A DNA stretch of 20,000 nucleotides from Halocafeteria seosinensis (GCA_001687465.1 LVLI01000603.1:44450-64449); one strand, 5' to 3'. Shown: positions 2,691 through 20,000, counted from the first letter of the stretch. A program made the numbers and translations. Notes: generated from the letters alone by a model not told the origin.

Positions 2691-4383
2691 ATGTGTCTTG
2701 CTTCTTTCCGACGCCTTGGCCTTTCCTCCGGAGTGCGCTGTGCTGCCGGATTCCACCGGGTCTCGTGTTCTTTGGCAGGGAGAACAATGGCATCATCTGC
2801 TGTCGGGCGAATTGCCGTCACACGACGACTTCCTGGGCCACAACAGGAAGGTATGACATTTTCGTCTCTTTCCTTTTTCTATTGCAAACGGGCATAATGT
2901 ACCTCGTGGATGCTGCAGAACTCCTCAGACGAGTCCAGGAGAGGGGAATCCAACTGTTGCAGAACGATAGGTAAGGATAGACTGACTACTAGTGACGCTG
3001 TTGACATGATCCTCCTTGCTTTTTTTCTTGAATGCAGCGACGAACCTGTTGACAGGCGACAGCTGGAGGAATGGACTCAGCAAGGGATCGACGGCCTCTA
3101 CTGTCTGCTGACGGACAAGATTGACCAGGAACTCATTAGACAGAGCGGGCCACGGCTGGAAGTTGTCTCTACTATGTCGGCCGGATTCAACCATGTAAGA
3201 CACCTGAACCATCAAGTGTAAGGTAGTATGAACACAGAACGACTGATTGCAGATTGACGTGCAAGCATGCAAGTCAAATGGTACGGCAGTCGGATACACT
3301 CCAGACGTACGTAACCCAAGACCATGAAACCTAGAAGCCAGTTTGCTAAACTGAACTTGTTTACGACAGGTCTTGACTGATACTACTGCCGATCTTGCGG
3401 TTGGTCTGCTGCTATCCACCGCGAGGAGAATACCAGAAGCGGCACAAGCTGTCAAAGACGGTAAGCTACACTCAAACAGTGCGGAGAGCGACTAGATCAT
3501 CATTATTGGCTACGGAGTACTAAGCAGGCGAGTGGACCACGTGGAAGCCGGAATGGATGACGGGAAAGGTGGGTTGCATGCGTTGTAATGCTCTGGTCGC
3601 GCTCTTCAACATGATATTATTCGGCAACACAATGCACAGGATATCCATGGTTCCTCTGTTGGAATTATTGGCATGGGGCGGATCGGCTATGCTATAGCAC
3701 AAAGACTGAAAGGGTTCAACTGCAGTTTCTTGTACACAGGTACGCAGTATGCACCTCCTCTCGACGCTTATTGATATTCGAACCACCTCTACAAACGCGA
3801 TTCCAGCCACGAAAAGGAAGCCGGAGATGGAAAAGCAGTTGGGGAATATTAGCTTTTATAACTCTGTAGAGCAGATGCTCCCGGACTGCGATTTCTTGAT
3901 TCTGGCATGCGCCTTGAATGATGCAACATATGGGCTGCTGGGGAAAGGTAAATAAGAGCAGATATTCATGCCTGAGCTGCAAAGAGAGTCCTTGGCAAAA
4001 TTTTGCAGATGCTTTCAAGAAGATGAAAAACGATGCCATTGTGGTCAATATCTCCCGCGGAGAGGTCATACAGCAAGACGAGCTTGTACAGGCTTTGCGC
4101 GATGGTGAGTACACACCATTGGACAGCAGTGTTTTCAAAGGGTATTGTGAACGCGTGTTACCTACCCTGTTCAGGTGAGATTGGAGCTGCTGGTTTGGAT
4201 GTAACAACTCCGGAGCCACTACCCAAGGACCATCCGCTAGTTTCATTACCTAATGCGTTGGTGCTTCCACATATTGGGTCTGCAAGCGTAACTACGCGCA
4301 GAAAAATAGCATCCATGGCGCTTGAAAATCTTTTCGCTGGGATTGACGGCCAGACACTGCCGTATGCCGTTCCTGGGAGCTGA
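2691..4383 (+). CDS. GRHPR: Glyoxylate reductase/hydroxypyruvate reductase (D-2-hydroxyacid dehydrogenase); 10 exons
   Basis: Exons 2691-2850, 2919-2970, 3038-3194, 3253-3306, 3370-3460, 3528-3568, 3640-3739, 3807-3947, 4009-4104, 4175-4383. Motifs CLLTDKID, STMSAGFNHID, GYTPDVLTDTTADL, Rossmann GIIGMGRIG, VNISRGEVI, GLDVTTPEPLP, LPHIGSAS. Alternative in-frame ATG at 2787. Confidence 0.93.
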
Positions 4384-4693
4384 ACGAGCGACCAGGGTCA
4401 ACCACGGTCTTGCTCGTACCTCGTTTCACATCGAATACACTTACTGTTGTGGTTGATAACTATGCACAGTGTGTTTTCCTGTTCAAGTCGTCGTCTCATG
4501 ACCAATGGCATTATTCTTTGATAGCCTATTGACCATAGGTCCTCACGCCGAGGCTCACGGTTTGTGATCCTTCAACGAGTGTGTTTTAGACTCAGTGATA
4601 AATGGTTGTCAAATGTTTGATGGGGTAGTGTAGAAGTGCACACCTATTCGTATTGCTTGCGTGAACCTGTATCATACTACATACGAGTACACT

Positions 4694-5311
4694 ATGGCGG
4701 AACTATCTCGACGGCAGCAACGCTCTCAGCAGCGAGAAGAGCTACTTGCGGCTTCAGAATCTAATGAAGACAAACTGCGTCAGTCTCATATACAGCAAGT
4801 GCTGGAAAGGGTGAGTAAATCTTATCATGTAGACCTTAGAGTGATGGATGTCGACTTACATTTCGTTGCATTGGTAATCTCATGTACGCTGCTGCAGCGC
4901 CGACGGGAGAAAGAAAGTGCAAAGCGAAGATATACACCCCAGCTTCACTTGCAGCAGCGCAAATCGGATTCGGACAAGCCTTCACATGATAAAGACAGCA
5001 GTAGGCGCCGTTCATTTGGTGGAGACAAGGAGTCTGATAAGTGCAGGGAACAACATAGCAAGAAGAAGTCCTCACACAGGGGCAGCGACAGGAAGAGAAG
5101 GAAGAGCAGAAAAAGGCGAAAAAGCCCAAGTCCATCAACTTCCTCTGGAAGTTCGGGTAGCAGTGATACTCGTTCCAGGTCGAGTTCTTCGTCATCCTCA
5201 CACTCTGACGAAGGAAGCACCTCCGAAGATACCAAACGACGTTCTTCGAGAAAAGAGAACGATGAAAAGAAAGAAAAGAACAGGAAGAAAAGAAAAACTG
5301 CCTCGGAATGA
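4694..5311 (+). CDS. Small Arg/Ser/Lys-rich low-complexity protein, probably nuclear; 2 exons
   Basis: ATG 4694, intron 4811-4897 (GTGAGT...CTGCAG), stop 5311. Basic NLS-like tracts (RKRRKSRKRRKSPSP, KKEKNRKKRK) and a poly-Ser tract. No family recognised. Confidence 0.7.
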   Translation: MAELSRRQQRSQQREELLAASESNEDKLRQSHIQQVLERVSKSYHVDLRVMDVDLHFVALVISCTLLQRRREKESAKRRYTPQLHLQQRKSDSDKPSHDKDSSRRRSFGGDKESDKCREQHSKKKSSHRGSDRKRRKSRKRRKSPSPSTSSGSSGSSDTRSRSSSSSSSHSDEGSTSEDTKRRSSRKENDEKKEKNRKKRKTASE

Positions 5312-6205: not shown

Positions 6206-9200
6206 ATGGCTCATCGTTTGGTGCTTGGCTTACTGTTGAGTCTAGTGGTTGCTCCCTTCAGAGCACATGCGCTTACGCGGACACAGCTTGGTTGCTGTTT
6301 CCTGGAAGCTGGTGTTCTCAAAGACTGTGAAAATTGTGGAGTAGGCAATGAAATTGTGTAAGCAACGTTACGACAACAATGACCCCGAGACCAAGATGAC
6401 TGTTTGCGATTGTTCTTGATGTACTTTGGCATCCCACAGAGACTTTAGTGGGGAGGGAATTTCCGACATAGAAGATGGTGCTTTCGACAACACAACCAAT
6501 ACTGCGATGAGAGACTTGTAAGTACCGCATCCTTTGAGTCCTTTCTGGATATTAAACTCAATGGATTTAACGTGGGAGTCTCAGGTTATTGTCGGGCAAC
6601 GAAATTAGCACTTTGAGGAAAGAGATGTTCCGTGGTTTGGGGCAGCTTAAATTTCTGTAAGTGTATATCCTCAGACACTAGCTTGGACTGCTGGCTGTTT
6701 AGAGTAAAGTGTGCACTGCTACAGGGAAATCAAGTCCAACGGACTGACTGAGATACAGGATGATGCTTTGGATCACTTGACCACCCTGGAAGTGTTTGAC
6801 GTTGTAGACAATGACCTCACAGAACTCCCCCCACGTTTGTTGCGTGACAATCCCAGCATAGAGGACTTGTACGTATCCGAAACTAATGTCTGTCTGGTGG
6901 TGTCTCAAATTTGAAAACCAAACTGCTACTACTATTACAGTCGTGCTACGATTCCTACGAATAACAAGCTGACTCTTCTAGACCCCTTCTTTTTGGAAGG
7001 GGTAGGCAGCAGCAGTTATATACTGTAGGTTATCAGTGTTGCTTAAGGAAATACCTAATCCAGAACACTAAACCTAACGGTCTTGCATTGCGTACGCAGG
7101 AGGTTGGATGAGAACGAGATTGATTTCTTTTGGATCGACTTTTGGAAAGTATCCAATGGCTTTGCATCCGTGTAAGTAATGAGGTACATACTCTTGGTAT
7201 CGGTTGTACCTTCGTTTATTGTACTAGCTGTAATTTGTTGCTACCACAGTGATGTATCGGGCAACGTTGGGAAAACCCAGGGAAACTGTCCTGGTCCTCC
7301 TAATGAGAGGACCGATCCTCCCGGATTCCAAGAGGTCAGATTCACCGAGAGGTCTACGCCTCAAAATTTCCAAGAAGGTGTTTTTGGCATAGACATATTT
7401 TTTTGCTATGCTGATTTTCGAGATTCTACTCCAACGCCCAGCCGGACTCCCACGTCGTCCCGAACTCCAACCCCGTCGATTAGCGAGTCGAATACTCCTA
7501 CACCTTCTTCCACGGGTACTCGGACGCCCACACACACGCCAACCCCGACAATGACTTCAACTCAGACCCCAACAGGCACATCCACACGCACGCCCTCGAA
7601 CTCTGCCACACCAACAGCAACTGCCACTAGCAGTCCTAGTTCTTCTCCAGACTTAGTAATCGGTTGCTGTCGCGCGTTCAACTTCGTTCTTGTACGATGT
7701 GACTGCCCCGATGAAGAAGTTTTGTAAGTACCGCCAACCACATATTCGTTGACGCTGGAAGTGTTTTACTGAAGCTCCGAAGCTTGTATATTGTTGTCGA
7801 CCAGGGACCTATCCTGTAACAATCTACGTGGGATAGCCTCCGGGACGTTTGACAGCCCTTGGGATAATGGAAATATAGACACCTTGTAAGAAGTGACATG
7901 AACTCTGTCAAGTTTTATGCGCATGTCCTAATGTCTTCTCCAGAATTTTGAACGACAATGTAATCGATCACATCGAAGGCGGAGCGTTCGTTGGTCTGAG
8001 TTCACTGAGGACACTGTAGGTGAATTTAGAAATATCGCATCACATTCAGATACTAGTGGAAGTGTACTCTAGCATTTCACAGGTCACTGACAAAAAACAG
8101 ACTAACTTCATTGGACGGCGACGATTTTCAAGGGCTAGTTAATGTGACGAATATGTAAGCTCGAAAGGACTAGGGTGCTGTATTTTGGTAGCCAACTAGG
8201 TTAGTGTGCTCGATTTTATGCAGATTTCTCAATGAAAATGAGATCAGCGAAATTGCGGAATCCACATTCAGCGAAGTTCCTTTGCTGGAAGTCATGTACG
8301 TTTCTATAAACGCAGACGCTTTTCATCGGTTCTCGTAACATCCTTTAGCATCCCTCAGATTGTTGCATGACAACGAACTTGTTTCGCTGTACGGCGACAC
8401 GTTCCGAGAAAATGCTGCGCTGCAGGTTTTGTAAGCCACTTATGGAAATCCCTCTGTGGCTTGAGTATTGGTCGACGTTTTCCATACATCGTTCTACAGA
8501 GATTTGGACCGTAACAAACTTGTCGCTCTTCCTGACAATCTGTTTGAAGTAGATTCTTGTCTGACGTACTTGTAAGTTCCTTTGAGTCTGAACGCTTTCA
8601 AACACTTTGTTGATTGTGACTATTTATGACAGAAATCTGGGGGAACCTGACTGCCCCAAAGGGAACAACCCCGGACTCTCTGGCTGTCCATGTCCTCAAT
8701 CAGCCCCAAGCACGCTTCAGTCGGATCTGCTTTACACTTCATACGAGTTTGGACAAGTGGATACACCGCAGTTCTGCTTTGCCCCTCCAATGTGCTGCTC
8801 TCTAGTTGATGGGACACTCTCGAATTGTCGTTGCAATGTAACTCGACTGTAAGTTCACGCCGCTATCTGAACAACTGAATGTGATCAGCAAATACCGAAC
8901 TAATACAGCAATCTCTCGCGAAAAAATATATCAAGCTTGGAGTGTCCGTTCGCGTACCCAGAGAATGTTGCGCTACAGGAAATGTAAGTCTCAGAGTATT
9001 GTTGGCTAGGACGTGTATTTCGCTGAGGTGACGATCTGTCCATCTATACAGATACTTGCACGATAATGAACTAACCGAAATTCCTATAAGTGCTTTTGCG
9101 GGGGCCTCCAATGCCAAGACGCTGTCAGTGCTACCATGGTATCTTGTCCTTTGGGAATTAAAATTGATAGTAATAATCTGCAGGATGCTCGGAAACAACA

Positions 9201-10107
9201 AAATTGCGAATTTGGACCCCTTGGCGTTTATAGGTCTGGACTCCCTACGAAATCTGTGCGTTTTGCATTGCCTAGATTGGTACCGTACCCGGTGTGTTGA
9301 TATGTGTAGGGTCGAAGAAGTGCAGGTATCTACAATCTAATTCTCTCACCTCGCTTGGGGCATGCAAATTTGGGGGTCTTCCGCGTTTGGAAAAGCTGTA
9401 GGTGGAACGGAGTTTTGGGGCTTTTGAACGGCATCTATCTTGCCTCGTTTGCGTATGGTTATCTGCAGCGTATTGAAAGATAATAATTTGACTGATGGGT
9501 TGCATGCCTTTCAGCTGGAAGGAATCGGCCAAAACGTTGAGGCAATGTAAGAAGAACATTGTGAGAGTAAACTGCGGTACCCATGTCTCGAGATAGTTTT
9601 TCGCCCTTCTTTTGACTTTATACAGATATTTACAGCGAAACCATATTGAATTCATCGAAGTCGGTGTGGCTGACCATTTGACCGAAAACTTTATGTTTGC
9701 GTAGGTGTTTTGTAATGTATCCAAGTAGTTTTCTTGTTTTTACACGAAGTTTTGAGGGATTGTCACAGAGCGTTAGAGAATAATGAAGGGTATAATACCT
9801 GCGCACCACCCAATCAAGGGAGTACCGCTGATATATTTTCGGCCACGCTTTCGTTTTGTTTCTCTGTGAATGAGCTTCCTGGAGAGACTGGAATATGCCA
9901 GGTTAGGGCACTATCTCCCAGTATGTCTCTGTGTTATGGACCGAACTAGGTATGTTATAGCGGACCTGCCGTGGAGACCGAAGATCTGCTCACTGCTTAT
10001 CACACAAAGCAACGTGGATTTCGAAGTCACATACATGTTTTCCTTGTCTCATATTAAAGGAACATTCGGGAAAATTGTTAACCGGACCTTGCAAAGAACG
10101 AAGCTAA
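6206..10107 (+). CDS. Secreted leucine-rich-repeat protein (~818 aa) with three Cys-capped LRR modules, a Thr/Pro/Ser linker and a Cys-rich C-terminus; 22 exons
   Basis: Signal peptide MAHRLVLGLLLSLVVAPFRAHA. Exons 6206-6357, 6440-6517, 6585-6656, 6725-6868, 6941-7024, 7100-7171, 7250-7723, 7805-7885, 7944-8015, 8083-8154, 8224-8295, 8359-8430, 8500-8571, 8633-8848, 8909-8983, 9052-9123, 9184-9255, 9326-9397, 9469-9546, 9626-9700, 9769-9901, 9961-10107 splice into one frame. Repeats of type xLxxNxI/LxxLxxxxFxxLxxLxxL, e.g. ILNDNVIDHIEGGAFVGLSSLRTL. The last exon is the least certain. Confidence 0.88.
7425..7650 (+). repeat. Coding Thr/Pro/Ser mucin-like low-complexity tract within the LRR gene
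   Basis: STPTPSRTPTSSRTPTPS...TPTATATSSPSSSP between LRR modules 1 and 2. Confidence 0.85.
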
Positions 10108-10482
10108 ATGATAACAAAAATTGAGCCTAATCTAGGGAGACTAGGAGCAGTACATGTACCATCAATAGCGACAGATGTTCCTATTAAATTATCAGTCAAG
10201 TCTAACTTGTTATTAGAATAATTAAACAAAGGTGAATCATTAAGTTCAAGCTCAACAGTAAGATCAGATTTTGAACAATGGCGAGGAGCGCTGAGACTAG
10301 GTTCATACGCGGCGCTTTATACTCGACCGCCGACCGCTTGGCTAAGGCCGACAAAATTTGTTTTTACGCGGGGAAGTGGCAAGCGAACGGTGACGTGTAG
10401 TAACTGTGGGCAGGTGAAACTTAAGTTTAATTTATATTTCTAAACTTATAACTCAAAATTCGCGGGCGTTACCTGTCTTGAT

Positions 10483-10812
10483 GGAAAACCCGCTCAACCA
10501 TAAGGGTGTGACAAAAATCTGTTTTTATTGGCTTTTTTCTGACTCTAGTTTCTGCTGAATTTGTTTTTCGATTTTATTTTTGTTGTTACATTTGTGTGTG
10601 TGTTACATTATTTTCTCTTCTACGATTTCCTTTTAAGTTCTCCAATTCTTCGTTGCGTTACCAATGCGAGCAGTTGTCTTTACTCACCACGTACTGTTTA
10701 GACCCCTCGTCTGCACGCTCTTTCAATCCTCTTTACCGCCATAATGGTACTGATGTCCGACCTGTAGCAGCTGCGGCTGACCACTACCAGGTAACAAGAA
10801 TAAAGTCTAACC
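10483..10812 (-). repeat. Left arm of a long inverted repeat
   Basis: Its reverse complement matches 15075-15404. Hand alignment of 10621-10780 against 15124-15283 shows about 10 differences in 160 nt. Outer parts contain indels. Confidence 0.95.
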
Positions 10813-11024
10813 TGTTTCACCCTTCGGGTTCACCAAGGGATTGGGACAGGATAGTGTTTATGCGATGTTTTTGTTTATGTTGTAAAATCCTACTAGCTAG
10901 GCCGGGAACGCCATAATTACCAAAGTAGAGCAAACACCATACCGCACAATTTTTACATCGTGTCTTCTCTTTCGTCCCCAGTTGCTTCGCACACCAATTC
11001 AGATATATGAGGAGTGGTGTTCAG

Positions 11025-12460
11025 TCACAAGGCGAATTGCTTCACGTTGGTTGGTGGGCGCTCCGCATTTCTATTCTTTTTCGTCTTAAACTTCTGCTCT
11101 CACTGAAGTCTTCGTAGATCTGCGCAGGGACAACGAAAATAATATGGACTTCGCAGTTGGTTGGAATCTCAGGAAATGCTGACTGGATTTTTTGAATCAG
11201 GCTTCTATACGAATGCATTTTAATGCCATGGAATTTGCTCACCGTTATCTGATATATACGGATAACTGCTGCGTTCTTGGAGGGGCTAGGCCACATGTCA
11301 GTCACTGCCTCTCTTTTCGATTCGGGGACGAATAAAGACGCTGTTTCTGACTGCTTCGCTTTCTCGGAGAGGTTGTGTCTGTGTAGTAAACTACCTGCAT
11401 CTTGGGAATAGAGGCTTCTGATGTCTGCCTTACAGACGGTGGTACAATCCTATTTTCATCTCCAGTTTTCTCTTCCAAGCACATTATGTGCGGTCTCTTT
11501 ATTCCCATTTCAGAAAGTATGTCAAGGCAAGCTTCTTCATGCAAAAATCCCCACTGTGCTCTCTGTCATCACTCGATACTTTGAGTCGATTCACAGCCTG
11601 CTGTATCTTATACTCCCGTATAAACTTAATTGATAACTGTTGTCTGACATAGTTGGTAGCAAGCGAGACTCCTTTAAAAATAAACGTGTCTTCGTAGCGG
11701 TCATCACGTCTGTCACTATTGCTTGCCTCATCACTATCATTTCCCTCAGATACGTCGTCTCTATCGCTTTCGTTTGGCTCATCATCCATTCCGTTATCAG
11801 TAGTTCCTGCGATGTTGTCAATACCATCGTTTGCTTGCAATATGACTTCGCTACCCACGTCATTCGCCTGGCTATCGGCGGATGCATTCCAATTGCCAGA
11901 TGTAGCTTCGCCCTCAGAAGCCGTACCGGTATCAGCAGTTGCTGCGTCGTTATCAATACCTTCGTCTGCTTGCAATATGGCTTCGCTTCCCACGTCATTC
12001 GCTTTGCTATCGCCAGCTGCATTCCGATTGCCAGATGTAGCTTTGCCCGCAGAAGCGGCACCGGTAGTTTCCGAACTTCCAGTTTCAATTTCATCGGTTC
12101 CATCAAGAGACAACGTGCCAATAGAAGGCACAAAATGCAACAATCTTTGAGAAGCTTCAGGTTTTGTTTCAAATTTGCTCCCCGAATTAAAGTCCACAAG
12201 TACGTTCATCAAATCGCTGCCTCCTTTGATATTGGCCAGTGCACTCGCCATATACCCTTCCGTAATTATCACTCCTTCGCTCATCGGCTTTTGAAACACA
12301 TAACGCGGAATGCCACCAAACATTGAAAACAAATTCAGCATAGCTCGACGAGTAACAGCAGGAAAGCAAAGCCTTCGACAACGAGACATCTCACGAACAG
12401 TCCACACAGGTATGGACATGTTATGCCCATGATCCTTTATGTACTGGCTTTGAGACATAC
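11025..12460 (-). pseudogene. Crinkler/RHS-type P-loop NTPase (C-terminal part) + PD-(D/E)XK restriction-endonuclease-fold protein; 5'-truncated with three frameshifts
   Basis: Motifs IPVWTVREMSRC..FSMFGGIPRYVF, SQRLLH, GFLHEEACLDIL, LFVPESKREAVTDMW, IYQITVSKFHGIK, IIFVVPAQIYEDF, QKFKT..VKQFAL occur in family order across -1 frameshifts near 11550, 11378 and 11099. No Walker A region is present. Confidence 0.8.
11795..12064 (-). repeat. Two-copy 135-nt (45-aa) tandem duplication inside the Crinkler-like frame
   Basis: TGAASAGKATSGNRNAAGDSKANDVGSEAILQADEGIDND versus TGTASEGEATSGNWNASADSQANDVGSEVILQANDGIDNI. ACCGGTA occurs at 11925 and 12060. Confidence 0.92.
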
Positions 12461-12550
12461 CCTTATTTGTATATGGGTACGTGATGGTCACGGAGAGCAA
12501 TTCTATCACGCCTAACCGTGTTGAAATCCGGGCTTCACAGTCCCCCAAAC

Positions 12551-12650
12551 TGGTAGTGAGTGGACGCTACTGGTAGTGAGTGGACGGTCCGCCCTGGGGG
12601 AGATTTTCCCCCATTGGTAGTGTGTGGACGCTGCTGGTAGTGAGTGGACG
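12551..12650 (+). repeat. Four 16-nt direct repeats in two pairs flanking a hairpin
   Basis: TGGTAGTG(A/T)GTGGACG at 12551, 12571, 12615 and 12635. Hairpin TGGGGGA-GATTT-TCCCCCA at 12595-12613. Confidence 0.92.
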
Positions 12651-13073
12651 CCGCAGATTTCCACCCCTCTTGCATGGCTCATAAAACGCGAAACTGCATA
12701 TACATGGGTATGTGCTGACTCTGTGGAGTTCAGTGATTTTGTATATGTGATTGGAGTTTTCATACGTGTATTGTGTGAGGAATCATAAAGTGGTGTAAGA
12801 GCGGGCTCCGGGAATGCCGGATCTTCAGGTTGTTCTGCGGTGCGAACGCTCAAATACAGGGGCTCAATCGACTGTCGACATCAATAGACACTTTGTGATC
12901 TTTAAACAAGCAGTGTTACACCCTTTGTGGTCCCACATCATACCAGTAGGGAATGACGTAACTGGTTCTCCGTGTGAACTACTGGGGTCGAGGGGAAGCG
13001 GGGGCTGTTCCGATTGTTTTGTATGATATCGACGGTTGTAGCTAGTCGGCATTTGGTATACAAGGGAAATAAA

Positions 13074-15080
13074 ATGGAACGTTTGCTTGCTGGCGTTTAT
13101 GGCCCAATTTGTGGGTCATGCTCTTCCGTGTTTTCTCCTAATAGTGATTCCTGTCGATCCCACCTAATTCAGTGCCACAAAGAGAGTGTATCACGGAACG
13201 CCTACCGTGGATGGTTGGACGCACAAACATTTGAGGAGGAGACTCCTCCCAATCGACTGGCAAGGGTGGATTCGAACCTCCCAATTTTGAATGGGCGGGA
13301 GTGTTGCCTCTGTAACAAAGTGTTTGCTGGCCGGCAGGGGTGGAACTCTCACAAGAGAGAACATGCTGTGGCCGCCAACCCCACTTACCGCTGTGTTAAA
13401 GCGCAAGCACATCCAGGGAACTGCTTACGAGCAGTGCGTGTAGCCTGTCAAGACGCCAGGGAGGGTCCGCGGTTTGGCCGCGTTCGGTTTCCGGATGCGT
13501 CTCTAAGCCCGGACAGGAGGATGCTGGAGCGTCGGTATGAAGGGCTGGTAAAGGACTCAGAGATATATAGAACCGAATTAGTTCGGTTCTATATGTCCTT
13601 GGGGCTGCATGCCGACGTTTCCAGAAGTAACGAGGAGTACTACGCGTACTTGCGTTCATTGTTTCAAGAGGTGCACTGCCCTTCGTTCAGAGAGGATTCT
13701 CAGCGGTGGTATGCATATAAGAATACAGTCACAAGGATCAGATTTCTCTGTACAAAGGGGGAGGAATTGCTGGATTTTGTTAGTGATGCATTTCGTCGTG
13801 GTATAATGATGCATACGTATGGAGATGGCGCGAACACTCAACGTGATGGCGAGGAAGTGGATCATTTGCAGAGGATGTCTACCGTGGCAGAGAACACGAA
13901 GCATAAATACGTGGCGGAAGTCGCCCAATGTTTTGTATTTCTCTGTCCAGGATTCTTTGAAAAGCATCCACAGTTTTCCCAGCAGGAGGTACCCATGCAT
14001 GCAGACGAGCAGGAGGACACCCTGTTTCAAAGCGTGTGTCATACGATGCTAGAACACACGCTGTTCGGAGAAACGGGTAAACTTAGAAATGGACTGATAC
14101 TAGCACAGCGTTCAAAAGTCTTGAGGTACTTCCAGGGGAGGGTACTTGACAAGAAGGATGGGGAGATCTTCTTCCGTCCTCCAGGGTGCGTCCAGCATCT
14201 AGCTGCGTCGTTGTTGTTTGTGCTACGTCATATTTGGATGCTTCACTCTGTTAATGGTGTGAAAGCGACGGAGACCGGGGCCGCTTTCGGGCAGAATAAG
14301 CTCATCGTTAAAGTAAAGTACCTTGCGTCAGCTGCTCGACAGATGGGACAACGGATGAATTTGAACATTGACGGTTCTCCAGAAAGAACCGAAGACGGTG
14401 CTCTTCTGGGCTATCGGATAGGAGGCGACATAATTAGTCGACCATTATTGGGGCGACTTAGAAAAAAATTGTTAAATAAAGTTCGGGAAGAAATGAAGAT
14501 GTTTTTCTTTGGTGAGGACGACGGGATGAACTCAGATGAACCGGAGGTTGTAGCCCTGAAACTGGTGATCGAGGGTAAAGGCGTGTGTGAAATTCGTGAC
14601 GCACAGCTCCAGTGTGTCGGTGCCAGCGAAAAGAAGCCTCTCAACCTTCGCATTTCCTCCGTACACATTGGTGGGAGCCGAACGGTTGGACTGCAGGAAA
14701 TAGTAGACCATTTGACCACTTCACCTATAAGAGACGCTGTTTTAGAAGATTTTTTTCCGCTTATGATGAATATGTTCGCTTTGGTGTATGTTACCGCTGG
14801 ACCTCCTGTAAGAGTCGAAGAACTCAGAAGGGTGGTTTTTGATGGCGACCAAGATAGATCGGTTCGGTCTCTTCCCAACGACCCTCGAATATTCCTAGCC
14901 ATCTCATCGAAGAAGTCCCACCGCAGACTGCAAACAGTTAAATTTTTGGATTGGGAAACTTCGCGTTTGTTTCTCCTCTTTTGCCTACTCGCAAAATGGG
15001 TGTATTTGGAGAAGTGGCAAGACACGGTGGACGATACTGTAGCACCCACATCTGAAGCGTTGCACCGGTTCCGGGATTAG
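13074..15080 (+). CDS. 668-aa intronless ORF: DUF3505-like double C2H2 zinc finger plus the start of a tyrosine-recombinase-like domain (telomere-linked-helicase/Crypton-like), C-terminally truncated
   Basis: ICGSCSSVFSP..CRSHLIQCH and NLPILNGRECCLCNKVF..WNSHKREH..YRCVKAQ. Later VYVTAGPPVRVEEL..DRSV..SSKK..VKFLDWETSRLFLLFCLLAKW resembles the TxGxPxRxxE..RN..K..RxLP..LL.YL block of fungal TLH-type proteins. It ends before any HxxR/Tyr motif. Confidence 0.7.
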   Translation: MERLLAGVYGPICGSCSSVFSPNSDSCRSHLIQCHKESVSRNAYRGWLDAQTFEEETPPNRLARVDSNLPILNGRECCLCNKVFAGRQGWNSHKREHAVAANPTYRCVKAQAHPGNCLRAVRVACQDAREGPRFGRVRFPDASLSPDRRMLERRYEGLVKDSEIYRTELVRFYMSLGLHADVSRSNEEYYAYLRSLFQEVHCPSFREDSQRWYAYKNTVTRIRFLCTKGEELLDFVSDAFRRGIMMHTYGDGANTQRDGEEVDHLQRMSTVAENTKHKYVAEVAQCFVFLCPGFFEKHPQFSQQEVPMHADEQEDTLFQSVCHTMLEHTLFGETGKLRNGLILAQRSKVLRYFQGRVLDKKDGEIFFRPPGCVQHLAASLLFVLRHIWMLHSVNGVKATETGAAFGQNKLIVKVKYLASAARQMGQRMNLNIDGSPERTEDGALLGYRIGGDIISRPLLGRLRKKLLNKVREEMKMFFFGEDDGMNSDEPEVVALKLVIEGKGVCEIRDAQLQCVGASEKKPLNLRISSVHIGGSRTVGLQEIVDHLTTSPIRDAVLEDFFPLMMNMFALVYVTAGPPVRVEELRRVVFDGDQDRSVRSLPNDPRIFLAISSKKSHRRLQTVKFLDWETSRLFLLFCLLAKWVYLEKWQDTVDDTVAPTSEALHRFRD

Positions 15081-15404
15081 GGTTTATTCTTGTTTATTCT
15101 TGTTACTTGGTACCTGCCAGTAGTCAGCCGCAGCTGCTACAGGTCAGACCTCAGTACCGTTATGGCGGTAAAGAGGATTAAAGATGCGTGCATGCGAGGG
15201 GTCTAAACAGTACGTGGTGAGTAAAGACAACTGCTCGCATGGGTAACGCTACGAAGAATTGGAGAACATAAAAGGAAATCGTAGAAGAGAAAATAATGTA
15301 ACAACAAAAATAAACCCAGTAGAAGCCAGTGGAAACTAGAGTCAAAGAAAAGAAAAAGAAAAAACCAAATTTTTGACACACCCTTATGGTTGAGCAGGTT
15401 TTCC
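15075..15404 (+). repeat. Right arm of a long inverted repeat
   Basis: CGAGGGGTCTAAACAGTACGTGGTGAGTAAAGACAACTGCTCGCAT and CACACCCTTATGGTTGAGC are exact reverse complements of sequence in 10483-10812. Confidence 0.95.
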
Positions 15405-15629
15405 TTCCTGAGGTGTCACCAGGCCTCAATTGGCATGGGATCAATACTAGAAATTAGCACTGTTGATCGGTCCCTAAAAGGGACGCACGGTGATCGTTGC
15501 TTGATTCTGTGCAAGCCGCTTCCGATTTGTTCTAAGGCGTTGAAGGACCTGCTCTTTTTGTGTGTCGGTGTAGGCACAAAATGGAGTCTTGTTGTCGCAC
15601 ACACACAAATGTGTGTGTTGGGGGGGGGT

Positions 15630-16822
15630 TGTTATCATTGGAAGCCAATCATATCTTCGATGGCCAGAATGTCGGCAGACGGATTTCAGGGGGCTATTCA
15701 CCATCAATGATACAGTGAGCGCATTTGACGAAGCTCCGATAGTAAAGCACATCCATAACATAGGAGGCTCAACAGTCAGCGACGGTGGTTTAATCGTCCG
15801 AAAGCAGCAAAGGTTTTTTAAGCTTCATGATTGCAGCTCTACTGGCAGCATTGCGGGGTCTTATTCGGCCCATGGAAATGGAGAAGCAGTTATTACAAAT
15901 TCGTTATCTATTGGAACCATTGGCGCCAGAGGTGGTGGGATTCTTGGTAGGAAAACGGGGTATACAGGAGGTGAAGATAATGTTAGCAACTGCCAAACAA
16001 CTGGAGATATTAGTTCCCGGGCCGGTGGTGTATGTGGGCTAAACACTGGAGCAGGAAGTGATCCAATTGTGTTTATCTTCCAGTTTTATTCGACGGGTAC
16101 TATCAAAGGAGTGATATTGTGGGTCCAGAAGCTGTATGATGTTCGGGAGTTTTGCACATGTCCCAGTGTATTACGGGAGGGGCAATATCAGCATGGTGGC
16201 ATCGCAGGGAGTCGCGCTGGAAACTCAGCGGGTGTCGTTACTATCGCGAATTCGTAAATAACACGAAACGAGATAATAATAGTGAAAATAGCGGTGGATA
16301 TGCACACAAGCAGCCGGTTACGATAACGGAAGTGTGATCATTAAGAACGTATATGCTTTATCCTCAACTGGAACAGTTCTGATTGGATCAACAGCTCTCT
16401 GGTGACAATGCCGCTGGCGCAATAGCAGTCCGCTACGCAGTTCATAACACAAGTACCGGTCATACAATGCAACATACATCGTTGGGGATGACAAAGGAAA
16501 TATCTTGCATGAGGGCGGTAACTCAGTTGATCTTGACACTATCCAGGGACAACTACACAGGGCGCAGGTAACAGACGACGGAGACGAACACGAATGGTCA
16601 AATACAATTTGGTTTGTGCCGAGAAGCGACCAATATCCCGAATTGCGATGGCGCTCCGAGCTACCAGAGATGGCACCCGCTTCCCCCACGCCGCGCAGAA
16701 GCATAACTTCTTTTCCAACATCTTCTTCATCGCCTAGAGTGACACAGTACCTCGAATTATCTGCCCAGTTTCCACAAAGAGTGGAGAATGAGTCTTTCAG
16801 AAAATGTTTGATATCGGGGTAG
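15630..16822 (+). pseudogene. Decayed GLUG-like Gly-rich repeat (beta-helical surface/adhesin-type) gene
   Basis: Repeats CSSTGSIAG, SLSIGTIGARGGGILG, NCQTTGDISSRAGGVCG, GGIAGSRAG. Fragments in other frames (LEANHIFDGQN; ICTQAAGYDNGSVIIKNVYA; EWSNTIW..DQYPEL followed by an S/P/T tail) are separated by frameshifts and stops. Confidence 0.65.
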
Positions 16823-17140: not shown

Positions 17141-19204
17141 CTACCTTTTCTTCTTCTTAGTGGGCCGTTTCTTCTTCTTTTGAACGTTCGTTTTTTCTCC
17201 CTTCGCCCCACAGCTGATTGAAGGATCAGCGGAGATATTCCGCATCGCATTCATCATCTGAAACCAATCCTCCGGCATGGCCTCTGCTGCGCAAAATGAT
17301 GCCCCGGTGTTCCATCCCAAGCATTCAATTACATCAGAGAGGTTGTTAGAGCATTGGAGTAACTCTTGTAATCCCGCGGCTCGATGATATTGTTCCTCAA
17401 TTTGCTTTACACTCTCTTCTAGATCATCAGGTGTGTCCGCATCCGCATGTACTTGCGACTCAGGTTCCCAAAGTCTTTCGATGCATACCTCCCAGATCTG
17501 CTGAGCAACATCTTTCCATTGTTGCTCGTAAATTTGTTTGATATCAGGATCAGAAATGCCTCTCGTCTGCTTCTGTAAAAGGTTTTGGATCTTTGGTACC
17601 TCGAAGTGCGAAACAGTATCGATCTCCCGTTGCAATTGTTCCAATTTTATTTGCTTCTGCTGACGCTGAAGCAACGTAGCCTTTTCACGTTCAGCTTGCT
17701 TCAAAGCTTTGTTGAGTTCTTCGTCTTCTTCTACTGTTGTAGCAACATAGGTTGGAGCGAAAGTGCCAGTCTTGGATTTCTCTAATGTTTGAGATTGGGA
17801 GGACTGGAGGGCCACGTTCTGTCGTCTCCCGGGTGCGGACATTGAGCCAGCTTGACCGCTCCTTTGTTCACGAAAACGCATTTTAAGCTCCTGGACTACT
17901 TCGCCAAGGAAAGCGCGGACAGCAGATGCAGTCTCAGGAACACTACATTGTACCCTTCTACCGTAGTGCCGTAGGCAACGGCAAAATTCAAGTGCATCCG
18001 TGACGCCGTCCGAGGTTTCTGCGATTACACCAGCCAAATGATCAGCAATTGCATACGCATTTACCCTCCATGAGGATGCTTCATTCGTAGCAGTCGCTGA
18101 TAGTCCTTCCACCATGGCTCTACAGAGTAGCTCCAATACAGCATAGTCGACTCTGCCCGTCACCATAAGAACGTTCTCTTCAGCCATGACACCATCTACG
18201 TCTAATTGTACAATAGCGTTGATTAGAGGCTTCCACTGAGCAGATGCGACATCCCTTGTTGACTCATCAGCAGAAAGAGGTGACGATATGCTAGGCTTCC
18301 CAAGCGGATTCTCTGTTTGTCCGCCAGCGTCATGAGTTTCTGTCGGCATAGGCTTGATATTGAGTTCACTCGCCTCCACAGCTTTGACCTTTGCCCGACG
18401 TAGTTTTTTATAAACTAGCTGCGTCTCTTGGTAAGTAGGCCGTCCGGTGACGAAAGTTATCTTGCGAATCCGGTCATCAGTCGGTTGTAGGATACATCCT
18501 TCCAAGTTTTGAAAATGTCGTAACAGTGAGTCCCGGGAGTCGGGACCAAATGATCTCAGACGGACGCTTACGTTGTAACGTTGAGCTCTTTGTTGAGTCG
18601 TGGCGGTTGTGCCGGCGGCGCTTCATCTTGCTTCCTTTCTCCTCATTTTCATAAAAGTGCTCATCTCCCTCGGGAACTTGTTCGAGCTGTTCTTGGCGTA
18701 CGCTCTTTCAACAACAAAGCTCGGCGCTTGTCCGCCCACCTGCTGGCCAAAGAGTTTATTCATGTTCCTGCGAGAAGCCCCAATGAAAATTCTACCACAA
18801 CATGCCAAAAGAGGACGAAGGGAGGCGAGTAATTCATGGATTTGAGTTGCCAGCAATATCTCATTGTTTCTCCGTATCTGTGCGCCCATGCTTGTCGCCT
18901 TTGCTCCTGTGGCATCCTTTGAAGATTGAGACCCTCCCTGCTTTTTCCTTGCTGTGTATTTATGCAAGGTTTTGTGAAACAGGGAAATGACTTCGGGGGT
19001 ATCCTCTCGAGACAGTCTCTGCGTTACTGCCTCCAGGTCTTCTGCCGAATCACTTCGTAAGGTAGCACGTAGATGCTTTTCATCACGCCTACAATGCTCT
19101 CTATAGCTCTCTATCGTATCAAAATGCTCATTACAGCGGTGGCATGACACCCCTCCGCCACCAGGAGGAAGGCTTTCGGAGGCTCCTATAGACGAGGCTG
19201 CCAT
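17141..19204 (-). CDS. ANKZF1: Vms1/ANKZF1-like ribosome quality-control factor (C2H2 finger + VLRF1 domain + coiled-coil tail), ~645 aa, 3 exons
   Basis: Exons 19204-18740, 18686-18572, 18498-17141 join in frame (introns GTGGGC..AACAG and GTAAGC..GGAAG). Motifs CHRCNEHFDTIESYREHC..H, HKTLHKYTARKKQGGSQSSKD..SMGAQIRRNNE, RIFI, DDRIRKITFVTGRPTYQE. Confidence 0.85.
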
Positions 19205-20000
19205 CCTCTATGGTTTCCAGGTGTATTCAACACTAACAACAATCTAACCACTACAGTACATGAAACTATCCTAGCCTACTATACACTACTTGTAACAATA
19301 GCGTGTGAAAACTTTCGTTCACACTGTCCGGCGGCTAGGGATGCTTTGGGTAAGATATCGCCATACAAAAATAGTTGGTATTGTTACCAACGAACATATC
19401 CTCTAATTAGCATGTCGACACTCTTTTCATGAGTATTCGAGGATTCCTTATAACTTTACTACCAGGTCGAAATCCGAATCCCAATTTGTCGGCGTTGTGA
19501 AGCATGTGGAAGCAAGTCCATGCGGCTTTCTTAGGCTGGTGCAGCTTAAGAGGTGAGTACGATGACGATTGTGAAGATATGGGCGATCTAGATGTGTTAC
19601 ACATCGGAACGGATGCAGCTACTACCCCAGATACCGACACAAGGAGAGCAGGGTCGGCCTGAGGGTAAGCCCTTCGCAAAGCAGGCCAACCGCCAATACA
19701 ACGAAGAATAGACCGCAAAATGTACGAGTTCTCGAGCGCCAGGTCGGTTCCCTCCGTCGGACCCTTTCTCGGCTTGGCGTGGACCCAGAGGTGGTCTTGA
19801 TCGAAACATATCATCTTGACTCGTTCTTCTTGTCCGTCTTCACTCTACGGAAATGAGCAATTAGTGATACAATTAACGGATAGGGATTTAGAGGAGAATA
19901 GGCTGTTGAATTGTTAAGGAACCAATATCGTCATTACCCTATGTTGGCTACAAGCTTCTTTTTGGTCCGTGGAGCCCCCTGTGCACTCTACCTTAGACCG

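Follow-up and report, generated by a model that had tools for sequence, protein, structure and literature searches.

The 20,000-nucleotide stretch of Halocafeteria seosinensis DNA analysed here (LVLI01000603.1:44450-64449, called the window in what follows) carries, at positions 13074-15080 of its plus strand, an open reading frame (ORF) whose product is called P0001. The ORF is a real gene, it is coding, and it is under purifying selection between close paralogues. P0001 has two C2H2 zinc fingers at its N-terminus and is without a detectable helicase or recombinase domain. It belongs to a set of four or more diverged paralogues, for all of which the transcriptome of a single eukaryote is the only known source. 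The protein probably belongs to the OrsD kind (Pfam family PF12013, formerly DUF3505), and is probably a DNA-binding protein rather than a recombinase. A sequence-only reading of the window had taken P0001 for the transposase of a tyrosine-recombinase(-helicase) DNA transposon with the N-terminal layout of the telomere-linked helicases (TLH).

The gene and its protein

The features of the gene that the argument needs are the following.

13074..15080, plus strand: P0001 ORF, 668 codons, intronless; the paralogues P0003, P0004 and P0006 begin at the position of 13074.
13110..13178, plus strand: C2H2 finger 1, C13-x2-C16-x13-H30-x4-H35.
13302..13364, plus strand: C2H2 finger 2, C77-x2-C80-x12-H93-x3-H97, with LP-x3-G just before it.
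14793..14825, plus strand: TAGPPVRVEEL motif (residues 574-584) with R580 (codon 14811-14813), which resembles box I of the tyrosine recombinases, a likeness without statistical support.
15063..15074, plus strand: HRFR (residues 664-667), HxxR-like, one residue ahead of the stop, so that the protein ends ...HRFRD.

An upstream in-frame ATG at 13023 gives a form of 685 amino acids, as in the transcriptome ORFs described below. The sequence-only reading described the frame well: its 2 kb are uninterrupted, both C2H2 fingers are present, the Arg codon of TAGPPVRVEEL is exactly where it was placed, and a Lys-bearing segment (K613/K614) is found downstream of the motif. The spacing LP-x3-G-x2-C-x2-C, which it ascribed to the two fingers, holds for finger 2, but the lead-in of finger 1 is G-x-Y-G-P-x-C-x2-C.

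The coding status of the ORF can be read from the way in which it varies. When it is compared with contigs of the sequencing runs X1 and X2, codon position 3 accounts for 31 of the 40 variant sites listed, out of 51, in 13379-14207. Among the sites listed, which are pooled from more than one variant contig, 38 codons are changed, 28 synonymously and 10 non-synonymously, and when the same changes are read in the other two frames, the synonymous and non-synonymous counts become 3/35 and 0/37. For the last 178 codons no paralogue is available for comparison; here the reading frame has a codon log-likelihood of +11.3, the two other frames have -52.4 and -45.9, and none of 5000 shuffles of this part is open. 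Between 14540 and 15035 each run has one contig with zero differences, and the parts upstream have two variants.

Database ORFs from the records GECG01009358-62 match P0001, with P0002 being 99.56% identical over 685 amino acids. The style of these accessions is one that we take to denote transcriptome assemblies, and since there is no RNA among the runs X1 and X2, the expression of P0001 rests on the transcriptome-derived names of these ORFs. The five GECG ORFs are combinations of two N-terminal, a few mid-region and two C-terminal variants, so that no fewer than two close loci must exist. The window does not encode the alternative C-terminal tail seen in P0003 and P0008, which must therefore come from another locus.

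Both fingers are kept in all four diverged paralogues that were aligned, and finger 2 has weak Pfam C2H2 matches (E = 0.0004 to 0.06). When AlphaFold is given P0001 as a single sequence, the mean predicted local distance difference test score (pLDDT) is 35.9. When it is given an alignment of four sequences, residues 1 to about 124 reach a pLDDT of 64-88 (80-88 in the region of finger 1) and take the form of two beta-beta-alpha units and a hairpin, so that the first ~124 residues are predicted with confidence to be a folded two-finger module. Fold searches gave no match above noise.

One Pfam scan covered 72 of the window's 93 ORFs of at least 70 amino acids. The other 21 lie in 10512-15076, and five of them, P0001 itself and four frames of the minus strand, were scanned as well, which leaves 16 short ORFs of that stretch outside the scans. 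Neither a helicase, reverse transcriptase, integrase or transposase domain in general, nor a RecQ-type helicase domain (DEAD and Helicase_C) in particular, was found in P0001 or in the other window ORFs scanned.

Relatives of P0001

An exhaustive phmmer search of 1.84 billion representative proteins returns four proteins at E <= 0.001: P0003 (87% identical), P0004 (37%, 448 amino acids), P0006 (31%, 249 amino acids) and P0005. P0005 is a low-complexity repeat protein and was dropped from the family. P0003, P0004 and P0006 all come from one eukaryotic transcriptome (EukProt), the same that holds the near-identical ORFs. Word-index protein searches at near lengths, together with a profile of four sequences at E <= 10, return only ORFs of this same transcriptome, and the word-index search at longer lengths returns none. 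A metagenome scan with the family alignment gave 146 stretches that fit the patterns, of which none was confirmed. All seven database relatives have at most 685 amino acids, and none of them reaches past the C-terminus of P0001 or bears a helicase; the paralogues running on into HxxR/Tyr and helicase motifs that the sequence-only reading expected are thus not among them.

The resemblance of the head to OrsD

The OrsD profile gives sub-threshold matches to two of the five family proteins scanned at Pfam, P0004 with 19.6 bits and P0006 with 19.7 bits, both at E = 0.0013 and both over nearly the whole profile (positions 13-110 and 13-114 of 114). The feature that is typical of OrsD, an N-terminal pair of zinc-binding C2H2 motifs spaced by about 60 residues, is present in all four paralogues. 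A protein language model points in the same direction: when the whole of P0001 is compared in the ESM Atlas, OrsD clusters from Ascomycota come out on top, one at 0.94 (201 of 256 features) and two at 0.90. Among the ten best matches that have a family, seven agree on OrsD, and these look-alikes are helicase-less proteins of 616-933 amino acids. When only residues 130-668 are compared, the best clusters are hypothetical proteins of Ascomycota (0.96, 0.95 and 0.95), without a common Pfam family.

The same kind of head is described for the TLH proteins. The literature on these proteins, from fungi and from Monosiga brevicollis, gives them two N-terminal C2H2 motifs, then a TLH domain and then RecQ, with the finger patterns Cx2-3Cx8-14Hx3-5H and Cx2-5Cx11-16Hx4-5H. 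OrsD/DUF3505 is annotated alongside DEAD and Helicase_C in genes that Fusarium, Colletotrichum and Pyrenochaeta have in their subtelomeres, and likewise in UTASb of Ustilago. Finger 1 of P0001 (Cx2Cx13Hx4H) lies within the first of these patterns. Finger 2 (Cx2Cx12Hx3H) fits the second except for its His spacing, which is 3 instead of 4-5, and which is 4 in P0004 and P0006. In its two-finger head P0001 resembles the N-terminal part of a TLH protein, to which the sequence-only reading likened it, but no helicase domain was found in it, and the seven database relatives do not extend into DEAD/H.

Several observations weigh against assigning P0001 to OrsD and to DNA binding. Both OrsD scores are under the Pfam gathering score of 26.6 bits, and Pfam lists OrsD for none of P0001, P0002 and P0003. 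The Atlas look-alikes are weak evidence, because the recognition value is 1894, below the 2300 of most known families, and the Atlas scores for parts of a protein are uncalibrated. The comparison with fungal OrsD and TLH proteins is one of profile, Atlas features and published motif patterns only. Residues 125-668 have a pLDDT below 50 and belong to no family, which leaves room for an enzymatic activity there, and the best register of the whole protein in an hhalign comparison, considered below, falls on box I of the recombinases. The DUF3505-like head of the sequence-only reading is supported in part, by two near full-length OrsD matches and by the Atlas clusters, and is weakened by scores that stay below the cut-off; a similarity to DUF3505, whose absence would have told against that reading, is nevertheless found in both profile and Atlas.

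The locus

The window is eukaryotic in character, with a G+C content of 41-51%. P0001 and a fragment of another gene lie together in an island of 4.9 kb (10480-15407). The island is bounded on either side by a dispersed repeat, roughly 320 bp long, whose two copies are inverted relative to each other. The surroundings of the ORF are as follows.

10480..10810, minus strand: left inverted copy of the dispersed repeat, about 90% alike to the right arm (complementary).
10806..12514, minus strand: left neighbour, a frameshifted fragment of another multicopy gene, divergent from P0001 and with no Pfam family.
12550..12650, plus strand: the 17-mer CTGGTAGTGAGTGGACG in four copies, in the region that separates the divergent genes.
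15081..15407, plus strand: right copy of the dispersed repeat, beginning 1-13 nt past the stop of P0001; aligned arm 15093-15407.
15574-16254, plus strand: right neighbour ORF, Gly-rich, in which G-S/T-I-A/G-G strings recur; without a Pfam match.
599-2467: PP2A B56 gene, split across several frames in the manner of genes with introns.
2898-4380: 2-hydroxyacid dehydrogenase gene (2-Hacid_dh), split likewise.
17144-19207, minus strand: VLRF1-like gene, split likewise.

The locus thus lies between housekeeping genes (B56, 2-Hacid_dh and the VLRF1-like gene), as the sequence-only reading had it. Its further claim that both neighbours are frameshifted is true of the left neighbour, but the changes of frame within B56, 2-Hacid_dh and the VLRF1-like gene are just those that introns bring about. 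The ORF to the right of P0001 is possibly one exon of a gene for a repeat protein.

The left fragment is about 95% alike to a contig of 2274 nt, which runs on, unlike the window, at both ends. Relative to this contig the fragment has indels at 11097, 11372, 11551, 12124 and 12453, and it stops where the left arm of the repeat begins. It also has a tandem duplication of 135 nt (11778-12047), encoding an acidic, Ser-rich repeat of 45 amino acids, of which the paralogous contig has one unit fewer. Its motifs FGGIPRYVF and YQITVSKFHGI, read in 10806-12566 (minus strand), may resemble those of Crinkler/RHS-type proteins.

The repeat is joined at 15081-15100 by at least seven different upstream sequences in contigs of X1 and X2. 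The summed contig depth, which is not a copy number, is 9890 (X1) and 1285 (X2) in the repeat, against 45 and 33 in the ORF. The repeat includes an A-rich stretch and an AATAAA close to the outer end, and both copies are sense-oriented downstream of the gene that adjoins them. The candidates for its class are a short interspersed nuclear element (SINE), a miniature inverted-repeat transposable element (MITE), a solo long terminal repeat (LTR) or a module shared by 3' untranslated regions; a recognisable tRNA-derived SINE it is not, because Rfam and tRNA scans of the window found nothing.

The 17-mer CTGGTAGTGAGTGGACG is matched four times where 0.03 matches are expected, and four are reached in none of 200 shuffles. 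There are contigs in which the motif is joined to other, truncated points of P0001-like sequence (12565>13347 and 12648>14282), and the cluster could be a protein-binding site or the recombination-prone end of an element.

Elsewhere in the window there are two plus-strand ORFs without a Pfam family, one rich in Arg, Ser and Lys (4634-5308) and one that is mucin-like and rich in Thr, Pro and Ser (7176-7724). In tblastn the finger region of P0006 weakly matches (E = 8e-4) the VLRF1-like gene in its N-terminal part (19082-19189, minus strand); the match is probably a mere shared zinc-finger pattern.

Origin of the gene

Consider first that P0001 may be the 5' remnant of a longer gene of TLH type, with fingers, TLH domain and RecQ, whose helicase was lost where the repeat now begins. 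The two-finger head, followed by a long body, would then be what precedes the helicase in the published TLH layout; the repeat does begin within 1-13 nt of the stop, and the neighbouring gene copy is likewise cut at the other arm (10806/10810). The TAG stop itself (15078-15080), however, lies just outside the repeat, in unique sequence, other copies of the repeat are alike only from 15081 on, and the transcriptome ORFs share the same stop. The ORFs scanned contain no helicase fragment, the Atlas look-alikes of 616-933 amino acids are without one, and the locus is not subtelomeric: a TTAGGG array is absent from the window, which has just single hexamers at 9903 and 15077. Such truncation is therefore unlikely to be the origin of P0001.

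The inverted arms could instead delimit an element of 4.9 kb, either of Pack type or a DNA transposon of which they would be the terminal inverted repeats, with captured or resident genes inside and P0001 as cargo or accessory. Their likeness of about 90% fits this picture. So do the many contexts in which the repeat occurs and the sharpness of its inner edge, as if many non-autonomous relatives shared the ends, and both enclosed genes are cut-down or multicopy. Yet no target-site duplication is seen by eye at the outer ends of the repeat, and no listed contig joins 10479 to 15408 as an empty site would, an absence from contigs that proves little. An expressed paralogue of the left gene is without the repeat at its 3' end, there is no recognisable transposase in P0001 or in the minus-strand frames scanned, and the same arrangement would result if a SINE-, MITE- or solo-LTR-like repeat had inserted twice, independently. 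That the island is a transposon is thus, in our judgement, improbable.

A DIRS-like retroelement, for which the inverted repeats would speak, is set aside by the absence of reverse transcriptase and RNase H from the five Pfam-scanned frames of 10480-15407.

The question of a recombinase

The sequence-only reading placed a tyrosine-recombinase domain in the C-terminal part of P0001, which would make the protein the transposase of a Crypton-like or recombinase-helicase transposon, in a copy cut before the nucleophilic Tyr. In this assignment R580 is box I, K613/K614 the lysine of the beta-hairpin and H664-R667 box II. The order of elements has some appeal: a hydrophobic helix, T-A-G-x-x-x-R-x-E-E-L, Lys-bearing strands and a long helix are predicted in this sequence (secondary structure of low confidence), HRFR follows R580 by 84 residues, and the stop codon abuts the repeat. 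Clusters of DUF3435 occur at ranks 20 and 22 in the Atlas with 0.76, which is a lead only.

The reference set for the comparison comprises 17 tyrosine recombinases from phages, lambda Int and Cre among them; 80 near-identical IMG/VR copies of lambda Int were left out. Against this set, the best local hhalign alignment places residues 541-594 on residues 173-226 of lambda Int, with R580 on the arginine of box I. It does so, however, at P = 0.27 and a probability of 0.2%, and a hidden Markov model (HMM) built from the same 17 sequences gives no match to P0001 with all filters off. At E <= 10, Pfam lists neither Phage_integrase (PF00589) nor DUF3435 (PF11917), whether the query is the whole protein or its last 168 residues, a negative that is a limited test, because the HMMER filters drop weak matches. 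PHROGs has no match for P0001, and phmmer with the last 168 residues against the PDB at E <= 10 returns six sequences (DNA ligases, an AAA+ protein and a designed filament), none of which is a recombinase. The Atlas clusters for the residues beyond the head, as noted, have no Pfam family in common, and the one paper found to mention both OrsD/DUF3505/PF12013 and tyrosine recombinases does not, in the passages considered, link the two.

The catalytic residues tell the same. In the order R...K...HxxR...(H/W)...Y, candidates are at hand in R580, K613/K614 and H664-x-x-R667, but no Tyr follows HRFR. Between R580 and the end of the protein there is a single Tyr, Y644, which precedes H664-x-x-R667, and HRFR is followed by just one residue before the stop. 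Past the repeat, from 15408 onward, the ORF is continued in no frame, and none of the seven relatives has a longer C-terminus. The family is, moreover, low-copy and under purifying selection. With neither profile similarity to tyrosine recombinases nor a catalytic Tyr, and with no helicase or integrase domain in the window ORFs scanned, both the recombinase domain and the transposase of the sequence-only reading are unsupported, and a recombinase origin of this kind is, to our minds, distinctly unlikely. For the recombinase fold as such, in the residues beyond the head, this negative has limited weight, because the reference set consists of phage proteins, with limited reach to eukaryotic Cryptons, and because the pLDDT there is below 50.

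A more general form of the idea takes the body that OrsD/TLH-type proteins have in common for the core of a tyrosine recombinase in degenerate form (R580, K613 and H664-x-x-R667), here cut before its Tyr. We regard this as very unlikely, although, if true, it would tie the TLH elements and the fungal OrsD family to Crypton-like transposons, beyond fungi.

What the gene may do

If P0001 is taken as a constrained two-finger protein, probably of the OrsD kind, the finger head would be homologous to that of the TLH proteins of fungi and choanoflagellates and to that of many helicase-less OrsD proteins of fungi. The fingers are predicted to bind DNA, and the upstream CTGGTAGTGAGTGGACG cluster is a candidate target. 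The family may then be what is left of a TLH-like selfish element, retained or domesticated by the host at low copy, and not an active transposase.

OrsD/DUF3505 is numerous in fungi and forms the head of the enigmatic TLH proteins, and its function is unknown. P0001 would widen the known range of the module, because it is constrained, helicase-less and interstitial, and because its family has no detectable sequence relative elsewhere among the 1.84 billion representatives. It also offers a small test case, in which a two-finger head stands beside a candidate cluster of 17-mer targets. On present evidence it reveals no new class of transposase.

Comparison with known systems

With the recombinases of Cryptons and with those of the DUF3435 family (the Starship captains), P0001 shares a motif like box I and an HxxR at a plausible distance, but it has no significant similarity to their profiles and no catalytic Tyr. 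Cryptons are, in addition, not known to have terminal inverted repeats or an OrsD head.

With the TLH proteins it has in common the two-finger N-terminal head and a long non-helicase region, a comparison that is made by published description only. TLH proteins have about 1300-2900 amino acids and carry DEAD, Helicase_C and RecQ, whereas P0001 has 668 and carries none of these domains. They are subtelomeric, whereas P0001 is interstitial, flanked by housekeeping genes and without telomere repeats.

From the helicase-less OrsD (PF12013) proteins of fungi, with about 600-900 amino acids, P0001 differs in that the Pfam scores are below the cut-off and that phmmer finds no fungal relative. It is like them in its two-C2H2 head and in its length, and they are its nearest look-alikes by language model, for the whole protein and for the body alike. 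P0001 is probably a new, constrained member of this OrsD/TLH-head kind, without a helicase and at low copy.

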